A DNA stretch of 64,000 bases from Anaerolineae bacterium (GCA_049972045.1 JBMFKS010000002.1:11511-75510), one strand, 5' to 3'. Counted from the first letter of the stretch, positions 6,355 through 44,697 are shown. Numbers and translations are program-made. The notes: generated from the sequence alone by a model not told the origin.

Positions 6355-6370
6355 CAATCGGGCTCCCAGG

Positions 6371-19352: not shown

Positions 19353-19540
19353 GCTTCCGGCGCCACTCCGCTTCGCCCTCGGCCCAAGGCCTCGGCGCGA
19401 GCGAACCTCCTCGACCTGAGGCCGTCGCCCCGATGGGGCTCGCCCCGAGGGGCCGACGCCCGGCGCGACGCGCCCAGGGAGGCCGATTTCCCATCGGCGA
19501 AGTTTCTGCATCCTTCGGGTCTCCGGGATAAAGGAGCACT

Positions 19541-26093: not shown

Positions 26094-26194
26094 GGACCTT
26101 CGGCCCGAGGGCCTCGGCCCGAGGGCTTCGGGTCGTGACCCTCGCGGTGCCCTTCCCACCCGGTGGTCCGCCTATTTCCCTGCAGGAGGCAAAC

Positions 26195-31626: not shown

Positions 31627-31655
31627 TTGACAAATTCGCCCTTTGGTGCTATACT
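31627..31655 (+). promoter_or_regulatory. consensus sigma70 promoter TTGACA-N17-TATACT of rpoB
   Basis: ttgaca at 31627-32 and tatact at 31650-55. Confidence 0.7.
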
Positions 31656-31690
31656 ATAAGTTCGCGGTTTATTTCTCCAGGGGGAGTAGA

Positions 31691-35620
<3,930 letters not shown>

Positions 35621-35963
35621 ATTCACAACCTGTGGTAAAATGCCCGCTCGTCAGACGGACGGCAGCCAGAGCCCCTGCCGTGCACGAAAGGACTCGTGAA
35701 GGCGGAAGGAGGCCATCGGTTGGCACAGATGGCCTTCTTCGCGGAATCTGAGAGATCGTCTGAAAATCTACCCCAAAGGACACGAAGGACACAAAGCCCT
35801 CGGCCCGAAGGGAAATGCCCGAAGGCGGCGTCGCCCCGAGCCCCTCGGCGCGTGGCGCGGCGTGGCCGAGGGGGCTTCTCGGCCCGGGGGGATGGAAGCA
35901 CACCAGTCTTCGTGTTCTTGGTGTCCTTCGTGGTGTTCAGACAATCTCTGAGGGAGAGAAACC

Positions 35964-36434
35964 GTGCCCACGATCAATCAACTGGTTCGTAAAGGACGGA
36001 AGCCGAAAGAGAAGAAGACCAAGGCGCCGGCGCTGCAGTACATCTTCAACTCGTACAAGCAGCGGCGTTTCCGGATGCCGAAGGGCGCACCGCAGAAGCG
36101 GGGGGTCTGCACCCAGGTACGGACGATGACGCCGAAGAAGCCCAACTCCGCGCTGCGCAAAATCGCCCGCGTCCGGCTGACCAACGGCATTGAGATCACG
36201 GCCTACATCCCCGGCGAGGGGCACAACTTGCAGGAGCACTCGGTGGTGCTGGTGCGCGGTGGCCGCGTGAAAGACCTGCCCGGCGTCCGCTATCACATCA
36301 TCCGGGGTGCGCTGGACGCCGCGGGCGTGGAGGGGCGGGCCCAGCAGCGCTCCAAGTACGGCACCAAGGCCGGCAAGGGCGGCAAGCCCGGCAAGCCCGG
36401 CGCTAAGCCCGCCGCCAAATCGGGAAAGAAATAG
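35964..36434 (+). CDS. rpsL: 30S ribosomal protein S12 with a Lys/Gly-rich C-terminal extension
   Basis: '[11 protein letters not shown]...[10 protein letters not shown]'. GTG start. The C-terminal tail is '[22 protein letters not shown]'. Confidence 0.95.
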
Positions 36435-37138: not shown

Positions 37139-39214
37139 ATGGCATGGCCACTGGAGCGGGTTCGCAATATCGGGATTATCGCCCACATAGACGCGGGGAA
37201 AACCACTACCACCGAGCGGATTCTCTTTTACACGGGAAGAACTCACCGTATGGGGACGGTGGACGACGGGACCACCGTCACCGACTGGATGGTCCAGGAG
37301 CGGGAACGGGGCATCACCATCACCGCCGCCGCCGTCACCTGCTTCTGGCGCGACCATCAGATTAACATCATAGATACGCCGGGGCACATAGACTTCACCG
37401 CCGAAGTGCAGCGCAGCCTGCGCGTCCTGGATGGCGCCGTAGTGGTCTTTGACGGCGTGGCCGGAGTGGAGCCCCAGTCGGAGACCGTCTGGCGGCAGGC
37501 CCGCTCCTTCGGCGTCCCCCTCATCGCTTTCATTAACAAAATGGACAAACTGGGCGCCGACTTCGCCCACGCCACCGGGACCATCCGGGAGCGGCTGGGC
37601 GCCAACCCGGTGATGCTCCAGTGGCCCATCGGCCGGGAACTCTCTTTCCGGGGCGTGGTGGACCTGCTGGAGATGCGCGCGGTCACCTGGGTGGACGAGT
37701 TGGGCAAGGAGCCGGTGATAGAGCCCGTCCCCCCGGAACTGGCCGACGAGGTACAGGCGCTGCGGGAGCAGGTCCTGGAGCAGATTGTGGAGACCGACGA
37801 CGACCTGATGGCCCGCTACCTGGAGGGTGAGGAGATTCCAGCGGCGGACCTGCGGCGGGCCCTGCGGCGGGCCACCATCGCCGGGACCCTGGTCCCGGTG
37901 CTCTGCGGCTCCGCGCTGCGCAACAAAGGGGTGCAGCCTCTGCTGGATGCCATTGTGGACTACCTGCCCTCCCCTCTGGATATTCCGCCCGTGGTGGGAG
38001 AGAATCCCCGCACCGGGGAGCCGGAGACCCGCCCCGCTGACGTCAATGCCCCGCTGGCGGCCCTGGCCTTCAAGGTGGCCAGCGACCCCTACGTGGGCCG
38101 TCTGGTCTACGTGCGGGTTTACTCCGGCAAACTCCAGGTCGGCTCCTCCGTCTACAACCCCGGCAAGGGGCAGACGGAGCGCGTCGGCAAACTCCTGCGC
38201 ATATTCGCCCGGGACCGGGAGGAGATCACCGAACTGACGGCCGGAGACATCGGCGGCGTGGTCGGTCTCAAGGCCACCTTCACCGGCGACACGCTCTGCC
38301 CCCCGACGGCTCCGATCATCCTGGAGCCCATCGTCTTCCCGGAGCCGGTGGTCTTCGTGGCGATTGAGCCGAAGACGGCGGCGGACCAGGAGCAGTTGCA
38401 TCAGGCCCTGCGGCGGCTGGCGGAGGAAGACCCCACCTTTGTCGTCCGCACCGACGAGAACACCGGGCAGACCATCCTGGCCGGGATGGGAGAACTGCAC
38501 CTGGAGATTCTGGTAGACCGGTTGGTGCGGGAGTTCCGCGTGGAGGGACGGGTAGGGCGCCCCCGGGTGGCCTACCGGGAAACGGTGACCACCCGTGCGG
38601 AAGCAGAGGCCGTGTTTGACCGGCCCATCAGCGGGAATCCCCAGTACGCCCGGGTGCGCCTGGCGGTGGAGCCGCTGCCCTCGGGAGGAGGGTTTCGGTT
38701 TCAGGACCTCAGTCGGGGGAAACTCCTGCCGCCCCCTTTCGTCAAGGCGGTGGAGGAGGGATGTCGCGAGGCCATGGAGAGCGGTGTCCTGGCCGGTTAC
38801 CCCCTGGTGGATGTGCAGGTCACTCTGCTGGACGGGTCCTGGGACGCGGAGACCTCCACCGAACTGGCTTTCAAAGTGGCCGGGTCTATGGCCTTCAAGC
38901 GGGCGGTGGAGGAGGCGAAGCCGGTGTTGCTGGAACCGGTGATGCGGACGGAGGTGGTGGTGCCCGAAGCGTCCCTGGGGGAGGTCATCGGTGACCTGAA
39001 CAGTCGGGGCGCGACCATTGAGGGGATGGAACAGCGGCCGGGCGGCGTGCGCGCCATCCGGGCGATGGTGCCCCTCGCCCGAATGTTTGGCTATGCGACC
39101 GATGTCCGTTCCCTGACCCAGGGGCGAGGCACGTTTACGATGGAATTCCACCACTATGCACCGGTGGATAAAGAGCAGATGGAGGCCATTTTATATGGTG
39201 GTCGTGGCTGGTAG
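37139..39214 (+). CDS. fusA: elongation factor G
   Basis: '[20 protein letters not shown]' G-domain. 691 aa. Confidence 0.97.
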
Positions 39215-39253
39215 AAGACGCTCTCATAAATTGGGAGTTGTTCTCCAGTGCCG

Positions 39254-39290
39254 TTCGGGCCGGGGGATAACTCCGGCCCGAATTATTTCA
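39254..39290 (+). terminator. Rho-independent terminator after fusA
   Basis: cgggccgg..ccggcccg followed by aattatttca. Confidence 0.6.
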
Positions 39291-39702
39291 CAAAAAGATC
39301 GCCCAGACGGTTACGTCCTGGCTCAGAACGCGAAGCCCCCTCGGGGCGTGGCCCTTCGGCCCGAGGGCGTCGCCCCGACGGGGCTCGCCCCAAGGGGCTC
39401 GGCGTGGCCCTTCCGTCGGTGCAGAACGGCCTATTCCAGCCTACAAGTTTCTGGGGAGCCCGGCGCAGCAATCGGGAGACGCCGTCCGGGTGGTTGATGA
39501 ACTCCTTATGAAAGGGAAGTGGTGATATTGCCCAATTTTTGCCGTTTAGGTGGATGATGTCCTCGTTTTGGCACCATTGCGGCAAATGTCAAATTCTTGC
39601 AGTTTAGGTGGACGGTTGCCAGATATAGGCTATTACACGGCGATCGTCAACCTAATCCCATGTTGGGCGGCTCTACCATAGTTCTCGAACCGGAGGTGAG
39701 AA

Positions 39703-40941
39703 ATGAAACGCTTGATCAATGCCATTAGTCTTATAATAGGGCTACTTATTCTTGGGCTCTTCACAACAGTCCTCGTTTCAACATTCCAAAAGCCAACAGG
39801 GTTTGATTCTCCAGGGGCTGGCTTTACTTCTGTTCCTCCTGCTACTCCTACACCTTACTATATACCTTCTACCGAAATTCCGCCTATCACTCCAACTCCA
39901 ACTTCGGAATTAGTGCCCTTGCCTTGGCCTTCTCCAACCCCGTTGCCTCCTATTCCTTCCGAGAAACGAATAGGGTTCTGGACTGAGAATTTATTGTTTG
40001 GCTCTCCACAACCCTTTGCTAAGGGACTTAAAGATCCATTTGGTCAAATTGCCTGGTCACCAGACGGCAGCCAACTTGCGATTAGCCTCTTTACGGGGGA
40101 ATTTATTCGGGATGAGATAGGACAACCTGCGTGGGAACTCACTTGGATTGCACTGATGGATCCATCCGGTTCCTCAGTCACCCCGCTGGTCAGAGGCTTT
40201 CTCCCCTTCTGGTCTCCAGATGGACGCTATATTGCTTATCTCTTGTATTCAGATGGCTTGTCTCCACTGCATCTTCAGCTTTTTGATCTTGAAGATAAGC
40301 GAGTGATTGAAGTAGTGCCGTTTGTGAAGGGCGAGATCTTCCCAAAGATAGCTTGGCTCTCGGCTTCGGAGTTGGCTTTTTACAAAGGAGAACCAACCAT
40401 CTTCAACTTACAGGCTCAACAGATTCGGCCTCTGTTGGGGAGGGATCTTGCTTCCCAGCTGGATACAGCCGTTCCTATGGAATATATAACGGCAGCTCCA
40501 GCAGCAAAGATCTTCGCCTTAGGTTCTTCTCAGAAAATTTGGCTGATGAAATGGGAAGATGGCAAAGCACAACTCTTTCGTCAGGTAGATGATGGCTTAG
40601 ATCACGCCTATTGGGCACTCTCACCAGACGGGAACTTTTTGGCGTATGTCTCTGTCTTAAGCCGCCAGGTAAAAATTATCCGCGTTGACGATCCAACTAT
40701 CTCTGTTGAGGTTCCCGCGCAAGGACGGGGTAGCCCCCTTATTGAAGGCTGGTCACCGGATAGCACAGCGCTACTTTATGTGGATTCTGAGGGCCTGAAG
40801 ATAGTAAACCGGGATGGGTCGGGACTTTACCCTATCACCGGAGAGATTAGCCACGCCCGTTGGCTCCCGGACGGGATGCGAATTCTTGGCACAGATCTCA
40901 ATGGGCAATTGTGGGAAATAGCAGTCACTCAAAAACCATAA
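39703..40941 (+). CDS. secreted or membrane-anchored TolB-like beta-propeller protein with a Pro/Thr-rich linker
   Basis: N-terminal TM/signal 'LIIGLLILGLFTTVLV', PT-rich linker, and repeated 'WSPDG' (PD40-like) blades. Low GC. Confidence 0.7.
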   Translation: MKRLINAISLIIGLLILGLFTTVLVSTFQKPTGFDSPGAGFTSVPPATPTPYYIPSTEIPPITPTPTSELVPLPWPSPTPLPPIPSEKRIGFWTENLLFGSPQPFAKGLKDPFGQIAWSPDGSQLAISLFTGEFIRDEIGQPAWELTWIALMDPSGSSVTPLVRGFLPFWSPDGRYIAYLLYSDGLSPLHLQLFDLEDKRVIEVVPFVKGEIFPKIAWLSASELAFYKGEPTIFNLQAQQIRPLLGRDLASQLDTAVPMEYITAAPAAKIFALGSSQKIWLMKWEDGKAQLFRQVDDGLDHAYWALSPDGNFLAYVSVLSRQVKIIRVDDPTISVEVPAQGRGSPLIEGWSPDSTALLYVDSEGLKIVNRDGSGLYPITGEISHARWLPDGMRILGTDLNGQLWEIAVTQKP

Positions 40942-40955
40942 GAGAGGGGTGAACT

Positions 40956-42539
40956 ATGAGGCTTTATCACTTGATGATCAAGATATGGGTAATCCTGGCT
41001 ATAACAAGTATATGGTCTACCTTCATTATTGGTCAAGTTTATGCACAAGGGTCGTCAGGCACAAACCCCCAATGCCCCATCCCGCCCCAATCTATTCTCG
41101 TTTATTTGAACTCCTTCTACAATGAATGGCCCTCTGGCTCAAGTCGTTACCAAACACCGGCCTTTGAGAATTATGTATGGGGTGTTGTAATGGGCGAATT
41201 AGGAACTGTAGTGCCGCAAGGCCCATATCAGGGGCAAGCCTGGGATGATGAAGTCCTGCGTGCTCAAGCCGTTGCTGCACGAACTTGGGGGGCTTATTGG
41301 TGCCGAAAACGCACGTTACCTGATGGACGGCGCGGTGTCTACGATGGCGCAGGGGATCAGGTTTATCGCCCTTACTACGCTGGATTCCCTTTGGCTACCA
41401 AGATCAGGTATCAGAACGTATCCCTTGAAACAAAGGGGGTGTACATTAGCTGGGATGGATTATTGTTACAATCGCCCTATAATGGAGTATTGTTAGATGC
41501 CCAGTATCGTCGTGATGTAGGTAATCCTTCTATGACAACTTCCGAGCAACAAACTTGGAGTGCTTATCAATACCTGAAGAGCGTTAACAACCCTTACAAT
41601 GTCAACAATATTGATGACGGTGTGGGATGGGGGCAACTTCCCTCTCAAGGTTGGCGGAATACCCCAGCCCAAGGTGCTGGTTACCCCCAACTTCTTCACC
41701 AATACTATACCGGCATTTATCTGCAAAATCAGGGTTACATAACCTTTACTGAAAGGTTTTGGAACAACACAAGTTGCAGTGGAACACCAGCCTGGCAGGG
41801 GAACAGTAATAGTATTAACTACGATTGGAGCACAGGATCTCCCCGATCAGGTGTGAATAGCGATTACTTCTGTGCAGAGTGGCAGGCAAATGTACCTTTT
41901 GATGCGAGTGATTGGTACACGTTTTACCTCATAGTGGATGATGGGGTGAGACTTTATGTGGATGGAGTGCTGGTCTTGGATCGCTGGGTTGTGCAAGCTC
42001 CGACTATTTATAGCATTTCGCTCTATCTTACAAGCGGTAGTCACTCTATTCGGATGCGCTATTATGAAAATACAGGCCTGGCGGTGGCTCGTCTATCTTG
42101 GCTACGGGGGATCGGCATGATCGGGGAATATTATGATTCCATCATTAACCGCACAGGAGATCCTGGTGCGCCCGTTATCATGCTACGTCCTGATGTGCCC
42201 ATTCGATTTGACTGGCATGTTTATTCACCTCTTGACACGCGGCAACAAGGAGTTCCACGGATTTATGAAGACACCTTCTCAGCACGGTGGCAGGGACGGA
42301 TTTACATTGACCAGTGTAGGTGGATCAATTTTAGGGTGAGGTCAGATGATGGGATTATCTTGAAGATTTTCCATGATCCTTACGGGGGTGGTGAGGAAGT
42401 GTTAATTGATCAATGGCGCGACCAGCCGCCAACGAATTATAACTATTGGCGCTGGTTATGTCCGGGAACCTACCGTTTGGAGGCCCGATATTATGAAAAC
42501 GGTGGAGGAGCAGTCATTAACATCTGGTGGGAAAGATAG
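40956..42539 (+). CDS. secreted SpoIID/LytB-like domain protein with two C-terminal PA14 domains
   Basis: Signal peptide. 'LRAQAVAARTWGAYW' is the SpoIID/LytB motif. Two PA14-like modules ('YFCAEWQANVPF...IRMRYYENTGLAVARLSW'; 'FSARWQGRIYI...LEARYYENGGGAVINIWW'). Low GC. Confidence 0.7.
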   Translation: MRLYHLMIKIWVILAITSIWSTFIIGQVYAQGSSGTNPQCPIPPQSILVYLNSFYNEWPSGSSRYQTPAFENYVWGVVMGELGTVVPQGPYQGQAWDDEVLRAQAVAARTWGAYWCRKRTLPDGRRGVYDGAGDQVYRPYYAGFPLATKIRYQNVSLETKGVYISWDGLLLQSPYNGVLLDAQYRRDVGNPSMTTSEQQTWSAYQYLKSVNNPYNVNNIDDGVGWGQLPSQGWRNTPAQGAGYPQLLHQYYTGIYLQNQGYITFTERFWNNTSCSGTPAWQGNSNSINYDWSTGSPRSGVNSDYFCAEWQANVPFDASDWYTFYLIVDDGVRLYVDGVLVLDRWVVQAPTIYSISLYLTSGSHSIRMRYYENTGLAVARLSWLRGIGMIGEYYDSIINRTGDPGAPVIMLRPDVPIRFDWHVYSPLDTRQQGVPRIYEDTFSARWQGRIYIDQCRWINFRVRSDDGIILKIFHDPYGGGEEVLIDQWRDQPPTNYNYWRWLCPGTYRLEARYYENGGGAVINIWWER

Positions 42540-42715
42540 CGAAGGTGAAACGAAGAAGAACCGCCCAACCTGCGGCTGGAGCCGACCTCGCTGCGCTCGG
42601 CTGCTCAGCCGCATCTCGTTAGGCGGCTTTGCCGGTGGCTGAAGAGGGTGCGTCACCCATTGAAGAGCACAAGCAAAAGGCAGGTCTGACCCAAATTGGC
42701 ACATGAGTATGATGG

Positions 42716-42835
42716 ATGCCAAGATTCAAGATTCTCAGCGAGATCAGGGACATTGAGACCATTGCATCGGGCCGAGGTGTGTACATCCGACGCTATCTGG
42801 AGCGCACTACGGCCGAGGACATTGGCGGAAAATGA
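42716..42835 (+). CDS. mini-ORF 1 (39 aa) of an overlapping three-gene cassette in the low-GC island
   Basis: MPRFKILSEIRDIETIASGRGVYIRRYLERTTAEDIGGK. Its stop overlaps the next start (ATGA). Confidence 0.3.
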   Translation: MPRFKILSEIRDIETIASGRGVYIRRYLERTTAEDIGGK

Positions 42836-42951
42836 AAGGCATAGCCACCGTGGAACTGGCGGACGGTACAATATGTGAGGCCGAGATACATTGGTATGAA
42901 GCACACGGTATAGGCCGTAGGGATTTCAAGATCAAGAGGGTGATACGATGA
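42832..42951 (+). CDS. mini-ORF 2 (39 aa)
   Basis: MKGIATVELADGTICEAEIHWYEAHGIGRRDFKIKRVIR. ATGA overlaps on both sides. Confidence 0.3.
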   Translation: MKGIATVELADGTICEAEIHWYEAHGIGRRDFKIKRVIR

Positions 42952-43175
42952 GCGAATTTGTGATCTGCATCAACAATGACAGCAATCCGGCCAGCCTGAT
43001 TGTCGGTAAGGTGTACCGTAGATTGTCGGATCCAGAAGCTGAGTCGCACAATATGCTTCGCATTATAGATGAAGATCTATCAGAGCTTGGCGGGTATCTC
43101 TATCCGGCCTCCATGTTTGTACCTGTGGAACTACCGGAGGAAGCAAAGCAAGTGTTGATAGCGGTGGGAAGCTAA
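42948..43175 (+). CDS. mini-ORF 3 (75 aa), hypothetical
   Basis: MSEFVICINNDSNPASLIVGKVYRRLSDPEAESHNMLRIIDEDL...; AT-rich codon usage consistent with the island. Confidence 0.35.
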   Translation: MSEFVICINNDSNPASLIVGKVYRRLSDPEAESHNMLRIIDEDLSELGGYLYPASMFVPVELPEEAKQVLIAVGS

Positions 43176-43479
43176 GCGATAGGCGTACTTATTGAGGCCA
43201 TCTGGAGAGGTTGTCCACGCATGAAGAAGCCGCCTAACACCCGCTGCAGCCGACCCGTCTCCGCTGGCGCTCCGGCGGGCGGTTGAGCTTTATCGTTGGG
43301 TGCAGATGGTCCGAACGGTTACTTGGGGGTGTTTGCTGCTGGCTTTTGTACCCTCCTTGCTAACGTAAACTTGGACACCGTCTTTGCACTTTCCCGGGAG
43401 CGCGCCACCCTCCGTTGGGGGGTAAAGCGAAGGTGAACCTCTGAATCAGTGAATTATCTGACGAAAGGAGAGAAGAGAG

Positions 43480-44697
<1,218 letters not shown>

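Follow-up and report, generated by a model that had tools for sequence, protein, structure and literature searches.

What kind of DNA separates the translation genes fusA and tuf in a hot-spring Anaerolineae bacterium, and how was it assembled there? The question is raised by a 64,000-nt stretch of one contig (GCA_049972045.1 JBMFKS010000002.1:11511-75510, referred to below as the window), in which a low-GC island lies between the two genes. With a probability of about 0.9, the island is an integron without an integrase gene: an attI site (39498-39662) followed by two promoterless cassettes, each of which ends in an attC site. The cassettes bear the junction signature that is expected of insertion by an integron integrase (IntI) at attI G/TT (the slash marks the crossover). 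By the proposed mechanism, IntI would fold the bottom strand of the attC of a circular cassette and recombine this attC with attI; the inserted cassette would then start with TTRRRY and end in an attC whose inner core complements that start. All coordinates are window positions, genes and att sites are on the + strand unless stated otherwise, and comparison loci are designated by L numbers.

The island and its position

The left host flank is fusA (EF-G; 37139-39214, a 691-aa open reading frame (ORF) with the Pfam matches GTP_EFTU, EFG_III, EFG_IV and EFG_C) and the right host flank is tuf (EF-Tu; 43480-44697, a 405-aa ORF with GTP_EFTU, D2 and D3). The gap between the fusA stop codon (39214) and the tuf start codon (43480), as given by the ORFs and Pfam matches, measures 4265 nt. 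In 300-nt windows, the GC content falls to 0.44-0.57 over ~39500-43300, against 0.60-0.70 in the rest of the 64 kb; this is the sole GC dip of the window, every other 1-kb bin being at or above 0.577. GC content at third codon positions (GC3) is 0.44-0.46 in the two large island genes, against 0.76-0.90 in host genes. An earlier reading of the DNA, made without database searches (the sequence-only reading), had described a low-GC island between fusA and tuf, which the ORFs, the Pfam matches, the non-uniform GC profile and the GC3 values all confirm.

EF-G places the window in the Thermoflexales/Anaerolineae (Chloroflexota), and the host is a hot-spring Anaerolineae bacterium. The closest genomes by EF-G identity are L007 (97%), L015 (95%) and L008 (94%), and EF-Tu is 96-99% identical in the closest relatives. 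When the fusA-tuf junctions were compared, the spacers of these three genomes measured 225-314 nt and held no island genes. Spacers of 34-378 nt were found in 36/36 Chloroflexota loci with both genes (the three closest relatives and 33 others), a wider range than the 0-150 bp that had been taken as ordinary, and island proteins were encoded in none of the 80 loci fetched.

The same island junctions are present at 99.7-99.9% identity in JGI 3300041917, JGI 3300041911 and ENA ERZ3623746, and the left junction is additionally spanned by one NCBI metagenome-assembled genome (MAG) contig. The island is not an assembly artefact: its junctions are repeated in at least three independent assemblies. 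Because close relatives have no island genes and cassette 1 is ~95% identical in unrelated contigs, the comparison supports the view that the island DNA is foreign to the fusA-tuf position.

The attI site

The left part of the island is an attI site without an intI gene (39498-39668), of which the ~165-bp element proper is 39498-39662; the crossover falls at G39662/T39663 within GTTGGGC. Related copies were retrieved by a metagenome scan with a 23-mer from the AT-rich left border. The 15 contigs obtained match the window over 39495-39672 at 77-91% identity (80-86% for full-length copies). All copies are conserved through AACCTAATCCCATG, end in CCCATG/TT and then run into unlike cassettes that start with TTRRRY. 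Across 17 attI copies, identity is 0.89 at positions -60 to -24 and 0.34 past +4, with six distinct TTRRRY half-sites, so that the family is conserved up to the crossover and variable in its first cassettes beyond it.

The element contains two direct repeats (DR), DR2 at 39529-39554 and DR1 at 39587-39612, with the common core TGYNGTTTAGGTGGA; both are kept in every full attI copy. The 17-bp motif within them lies at 39540 and 39598, 58 nt apart, and extends to 26 nt at 85% identity. Two border copies of a 16-17-bp motif had been pointed out by the sequence-only reading; they are real, the first starting at 39540 and not at 39541, and are not terminal or operator repeats as had been suggested there. 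They form the direct-repeat pair of an attI site, placed like DR1 and DR2 of attI1 (PMC8946536), and are predicted to have an integrase-binding role. Variation in the family was also recorded: a 58-bp tandem duplication gives the L105 attI a third direct-repeat copy, in L114 two copies of attI are separated by 1.3 kb, and L110, L114 and L115 hold only the last 35-75 bp of attI within arrays, like delta-attI-type cassettes.

In L105, the attI element directly adjoins a divergent 317-aa integron-integrase gene (TIGR02249, 499.9 bits, cut-off 265), and in L116 the same IntI N-terminus stands beside attI at the contig end. Because these copies abut intI, 39498-39662 is identified as the attI of that integron class, whereas the window copy itself adjoins no divergent intI. 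The reverse strand of the window attI retains the intI ribosome-binding site AAGGAG at ~39503-39508 (AAGGAGTTCA), and the homology stops at 39498. The IntI cluster of L105 is annotated in Anaerolineae MAGs. Since the L105 intI has 65% GC and its attI 43% GC, high-GC hosts are the native setting of the platform, and the AT-richness of attI is intrinsic; the attI platform belongs to an integron class of high-GC hot-spring Anaerolineae.

The two cassettes and their attC sites

Cassette 1 (39663-42618, 2956 bp) ends in an attC at 42563-42624 (inner core GCCCAAC, outer core GTTAGGC). Cassette 2 (42619-43295, 677 bp) ends in an attC at 43232-43301 (inner core GCCTAAC, outer core GTTGGGT at 43295-43301, crossover G43295/T43296). 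The pattern RYYYAAC-N40-150-GTTRRRY occurs at two sites in the 64 kb, both within the island. A covariance model (R1) was built from 12 attC sites, all from contigs other than the window. In its alignment, 90% of cells pair and 11 pairs show compensatory changes, values equalled by 0/500 shuffles, and slid controls pair at 24-40%. With filters off, R1 matches on the + strand attC1 (51.9 bits, E 2.9e-12) and attC2 (43.1 bits, E 1e-9); the next-best match scores 16.6 bits and the reverse strand 15.6 bits. The L box of attC1 covaries with the L087 copy (GCT/AGC vs GAT/ATC). Rfam at gathering thresholds gave no match in the island, and its sole matches in the window were two tRNAs.

Each inner core agrees at 7/7 positions with the reverse complement of the start of its own cassette: GCCCAAC against G/TTGGGC (39662) and GCCTAAC against G/TTAGGC (42618). 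The same 7/7 complementarity was found in 15 of the 19 cassettes of related arrays. Both sites thus combine inverted cores, a covariance-scored hairpin and core-start complementarity.

Two other placements were considered and rejected. An attC2 outer core GTTGAGC at 43282 is put inside the stem by the model alignment. The opposite attC orientation, taken from the bulged bases, disagrees with the L087 and L089 attCs, which are canonical on the + strand, and with the 15.6 bits scored on the - strand.

Cassette 1 recurs in L087 and L088 at 94.6-95.4% nucleotide identity, with homology over 39662-42625, inside arrays and behind the attC of a DNA-methylase cassette; a version at 71% identity is present in another array (L089-L091). 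Cassette 2 is 90% identical to L118-L121 over 42616-43209, where the homology stops. Cassette 1 thus shares both G/TT boundaries with its relatives and cassette 2 the left boundary only. In L118-L121 (e.g. L118 620-1279), an attC that is 91% like attC2 lies upstream of a pair of 79-aa and 75-aa genes, after an SdpI-family gene.

The missing integrase

No intI was found in the window by tblastn with the L105 IntI (best E 0.21), and no tyrosine recombinase in Pfam scans of candidate ORFs in the window. No transposase, tRNA target or terminal repeats were found for the island, the only tRNAs of the window being at 6369 and 10180. The attI and attC sites therefore have no intI within a few kb, as in an attC-site cluster with no integron integrase (CALIN), and the island has the features of neither a tRNA-targeted nor a transposon-borne element. 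The sequence-only reading had likewise seen no integrase, transposase or tRNA target and had left the acquisition mechanism unclear; for the cassettes, this is resolved as integron-integrase recombination at attI.

Loss of intI was observed within the class. L102 and L106 correspond to the L105 locus after a deletion in intI that left only codons 300-317; a CACC microhomology marks the point where these codons meet the intI ribosome-binding site. In L104, L108/L109 and L112, the upstream context lacks intI, contains a MazF-like gene and tRNAs, and is 97-99.5% identical; three unrelated first cassettes follow at the attI crossover (oriented junctions 1357, 1061/469 and 5980, respectively). No intI is present within 5.9 kb upstream in this context. 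Unrelated first cassettes on near-identical DNA without intI imply that cassettes were turned over with no adjacent integrase. For the window, we infer that the integrase that loaded the cassettes either was once adjacent and then lost, or is encoded elsewhere and acts in trans.

The three unrelated first cassettes behind near-identical intI-less DNA in L104, L108 and L112 also lend support to a broader reading, which we regard as unlikely on balance: hot-spring Anaerolineae may keep detached "satellite" attI sites that are loaded in trans, the fusA-tuf copy using transcription of the str operon instead of Pc.

Points against the integron reading and alternative origins

Several observations weigh against the reading of the island as an integron without integrase gene. 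The central stem of attC1 is degenerate (a mismatch or a 3-nt bulge), with the bulged bases on the unexpected side of the minimum-energy fold, and the single-sequence fold of attC2 is no better than that of shuffled sequence. Cassette 2 is circularly permuted in L118-L121, which a simple cassette model does not predict. The left limit of attI homology (39497/39498) carries no recombination signature. No integrase gene or pseudogene adjoins the island, so the recombination is deduced from its products. No variant with an empty site or alternative cassettes was found, in a sole metagenome scan (with the left 23-mer) that missed the lineage's own contigs. Finally, the integron reading does not explain how the attI platform arrived in the fusA-tuf spacer.

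Two courses of events were considered for that arrival. The one we place a little short of even odds is that a complete integron stood in the spacer, with intI facing fusA, and that intI was later deleted in place. Such a loss is seen in the same class (L102 and L106), and the window has kept the intI ribosome-binding site and homology up to 39498; but to the left of 39498 there is no intI remnant, host REP-like repeats being present instead, and the arrival of a whole integron in the spacer would still have to be explained.

Alternatively, attI and its cassettes may have been translocated from an integron elsewhere, by illegitimate or repeat-mediated recombination, and then served in trans, a possibility that we hold with more doubt than conviction. 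At least three unrelated upstream contexts were recorded for the attI family, L104, L108 and L112 imply turnover with no adjacent integrase, and REP-like repeats abut the left end. Against these stand a search that gave no donor locus, target duplication or matching right-end repeat, and the fact that all assemblies of the lineage hold the same two cassettes, with no turnover seen. Excision of attI and cassettes as a circle via a GTT beside intI was also tried as a route and rejected: intact platforms have no GTT there.

It is very improbable that IntI inserted the cassettes directly at a genomic attG site (GWT) in the fusA-tuf spacer, which would make the island a small CALIN with no platform. 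Cassettes are inserted efficiently at GWT according to Loot et al., who also found two cassettes in 1362/2961 CALINs (bioRxiv 10.1101/2022.09.11.507474); in the window, both junctions are G/TT and no intI is nearby. An attG or SALIN insertion would have ordinary genomic DNA as its 5' flank, but the 165 bp to the left of cassette 1 is not native spacer: it is the attI element, which is conserved, lies directly beside intI in L105 and L116, and stands ahead of varied cassettes. Because a classical attI precedes the cassettes, attG insertion was rejected.

A generic acquired island (phage, integrative and conjugative element (ICE) or transposon), a native locus that evolves fast, or a chimeric assembly can practically be set aside: low GC without mobility genes is indeed seen in many decayed islands, but the island has no integrase, transposase, tRNA target or terminal repeat, its junctions are identical in at least three independent assemblies, and the att sites account for every boundary.

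Cargo of cassette 1

Cassette 1 carries two genes. The first (39703-40941) encodes a membrane-anchored PD40/TolB-like beta-propeller protein of 412 aa (PD40, E 2e-12) that has a hydrophobic anchor at its N-terminus and a Pro/Thr linker. The second (40956-42539) encodes a secreted SpoIID/LytB-like protein of 527 aa with two PA14 domains (Pfam SpoIID, PA14). Its SpoIID domain scores 25.6 bits (cut-off 23), and the two PA14 domains are seen as an internal repeat (E 2e-16) and as two stretches that align to the tandem PA14 of PDB 6qe7. Both proteins had been described in these terms from the sequence alone, and the descriptions are borne out by the PD40 matches and hydrophobic anchor for the first protein, and by Pfam, the internal repeat and 6qe7 for the second. 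The two genes are neighbours in every homologous locus, and this constant neighbourhood suggests that the pair may have a cell-envelope or carbohydrate-binding role. Two population differences were recorded: a 1-nt deletion at 41236 in variant L001 cuts the SpoIID/PA14 gene call to 453 aa, and in L001 and L003 one G is absent at 39695, in the region of the beta-propeller gene's ribosome-binding site.

Homologues of the pair were met in two further housekeeping operons, which belong to another organism. In L092 (4670-11003 of a 75.7-kb contig, JGI 3300036766), propeller and SpoIID/PA14 homologues (48% identity) lie between pyrH and frr in the operon rpsB-tsf-pyrH-frr-uppS-cdsA, in an insert with an attC (53.7 bits) and three ORFs besides. 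Such cargo was here found for a second time within a conserved translation-related operon. In L093 (3315-12776, same sample), the nuo operon is broken thrice, by an IS110 transposase, an acetyltransferase and a cargo module; the module, placed after nuoF, consists of a beta-propeller gene, a SpoIID/PA14 gene and a 246-aa gene, and R1 found no attC there. L092 and L093 hint that housekeeping operons are recurrent homes for propeller and SpoIID/PA14 cargo.

Cargo of cassette 2

In the stretch that is cassette 2, the sequence-only reading had listed three overlapping mini-ORFs, arranged like an addiction or regulatory cassette. There are in fact two genes, one of them a pseudogene. Both 39-aa ORFs belong to a single frameshifted 79-codon gene (42716-42951), from which one T is absent after 42808 and whose third frame reads HYGRGHWRKMKGIATVEL. 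The rejoined 78-aa sequence matches 3432 proteins. The best of them cover 99% of its length at 95% identity, and 79 aa is the usual length among the matches listed. Wherever an assembly extends over the small gene (L001, L002/L006), it has this frameshift. The partner gene (42948-43175, 75 aa) is intact, has 1086 homologues at E<=0.001 and always lies behind the 79-aa gene with an ATGA overlap. The cassettes show signs of decay, with the shared frameshift in the small gene and a variant deletion in the SpoIID/PA14 gene.

No match at or above the family cut-off was obtained for the small genes in Pfam, NCBIfam, PADLOC or PHROGs, and the 79-aa family, modelled with AlphaFold (pLDDT 79.6), matched no PDB fold (best E 0.16). 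An addiction or regulatory role thus finds no backing from any toxin-antitoxin, defence or Pfam family. A type II toxin-antitoxin pair in particular is not supported: no significant match to a known toxin or antitoxin family was obtained in these databases, and only the two-gene layout with ATGA overlap is similar.

The small-gene pair also occurs without an attC. In L096-L101 (Thermoflexus hugenholtzii and relatives; e.g. L097 7828-8590), a 79-aa and a 76/78-aa gene lie in a sugar-acid operon. In L097-L101, the pair stands between direct repeats of ~100 bp that correspond to the 5' end of a DUF2442 gene, which suggests a different insertion route.

Expression of the cassettes

The leaders of both cassettes are only ~40 nt long and contain a ribosome-binding site. 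Because of these short leaders, any expression of the cassettes would rely on upstream transcription, either fusA read-through past the hairpin described below or a promoter within attI that escaped recognition. Simple scans for promoters and terminators found no more candidates than in shuffled sequence, and no convincing promoter was seen in attI or upstream of tuf. The strong constitutive expression that had been supposed for the secreted proteins is unsupported: downstream of fusA stands a conserved GC hairpin that runs into a U-rich tail, the codons are far from host usage, and the frameshift variant in the SpoIID/PA14 gene weakens the claim further.

Host-type DNA on either side of the element

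Downstream of fusA, a host-native terminator-like hairpin (39253-39291) has a 13-bp GC stem and the U-rich tail UUAUUUCAC (RNA fold -28.1 kcal/mol, z -2.95). Its sequence is kept in L007, L008 and L015, and homology to these relatives ends at 39293. The following spacer (39294-39497) contains REP-like palindromic repeats (39330-39415), copies of which lie in intergenic DNA at 19418-19453 (92% over 36 nt) and at 26097-26122. The GC content of 39215-39497 is host-like (60-63%). As the spacer is GC-rich and its repeats recur in two other intergenic regions, it was taken as host-type DNA. It matches neither the relatives' spacers nor integron loci nor any fetched locus. In the L002 assembly, a 15-bp length polymorphism was found in the REP-like repeats beside the island (39370-39384).

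To the right of attC2, a spacer of ~52% GC (43302-43404) matches neither relatives nor fetched loci and could be either the original DNA downstream of attI or a lineage-specific spacer. Searched as blocks, the flanks 39290-39500 and 43283-43445 matched none of the fetched loci. The conserved, host-native tuf leader (43405-43479) aligns with L007, L008 and L015; homology to the relatives restarts at ~43435-43446 by BLAST and at ~43405 by eye. An imperfect 19-nt direct repeat (15/19) was also seen, AGATCGCCCAGACGGTTAC at 39296-39314 and AGATGGTCCGAACGGTTAC at 43304-43322. Its copies sit just past the left end of homology to the relatives and just past the attC2 outer core, perhaps by chance.

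Further upstream (31643-36434), rpoB is directly followed by rpsL with no rpoC between them, and RpsL is 156 aa long with a C-terminal extension rich in Lys, Gly and Pro.

Comparison with known systems

The analysis turns an island at a gene junction that ranks among the most conserved in bacteria into a defined element, with attI, crossover, cassettes and attCs located to the base. It provides a natural case of integron cargo in a core translation operon with no adjacent integrase, and bears on the origin of CALINs and on host promoters that stand in for Pc. To our knowledge, the attI sites of most non-clinical integrons are unknown; here, an attI with paired direct repeats is defined for an integron class of thermophilic Anaerolineae.

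CALINs have been defined as attC-site clusters in which integron integrase is missing, and integrons were previously known in Chloroflexi (Cury et al. 2016, PMC4889954). Like a CALIN, the island has two attCs on one strand, co-oriented cassettes, no intI in the 39 kb upstream or the 20 kb downstream, and cargo unrelated to antibiotic resistance. Unlike CALINs, for which this is rarely assessable, its attI is present and identifiable, and the array lies within the str operon. For want of intI, the island does not qualify as a complete integron. As in chromosomal integrons of environmental bacteria (PMC4889954), the reference copies have a divergent intI beside attI and the crossover is at G/TT of GTTRRRY, and as in known integrons generally, the attCs have inner and outer cores, L boxes and bulged bases.

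Like attI1 (PMC8946536), the element has a pair of direct repeats upstream of the core. It differs from attI1 in that its sequence is dissimilar, its repeats are 58 bp apart, the window copy has no intI and the hosts are thermophilic Anaerolineae. Partial attI copies like those of L110, L114 and L115 are known from the delta-attI-type cassettes of mobile integrons (PMC12901181), whereas the window copy is full-length and stands at the head of the array. With attG insertions, SALINs and small CALINs (bioRxiv 10.1101/2022.09.11.507474), the island shares promoterless cassettes located away from an integrase, which a host promoter could drive; in contrast to attG insertions, the receiving site is a classical attI and not a bare GWT. 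The island is therefore not a new kind of system: it is a known gene-capture element in an unusual place.

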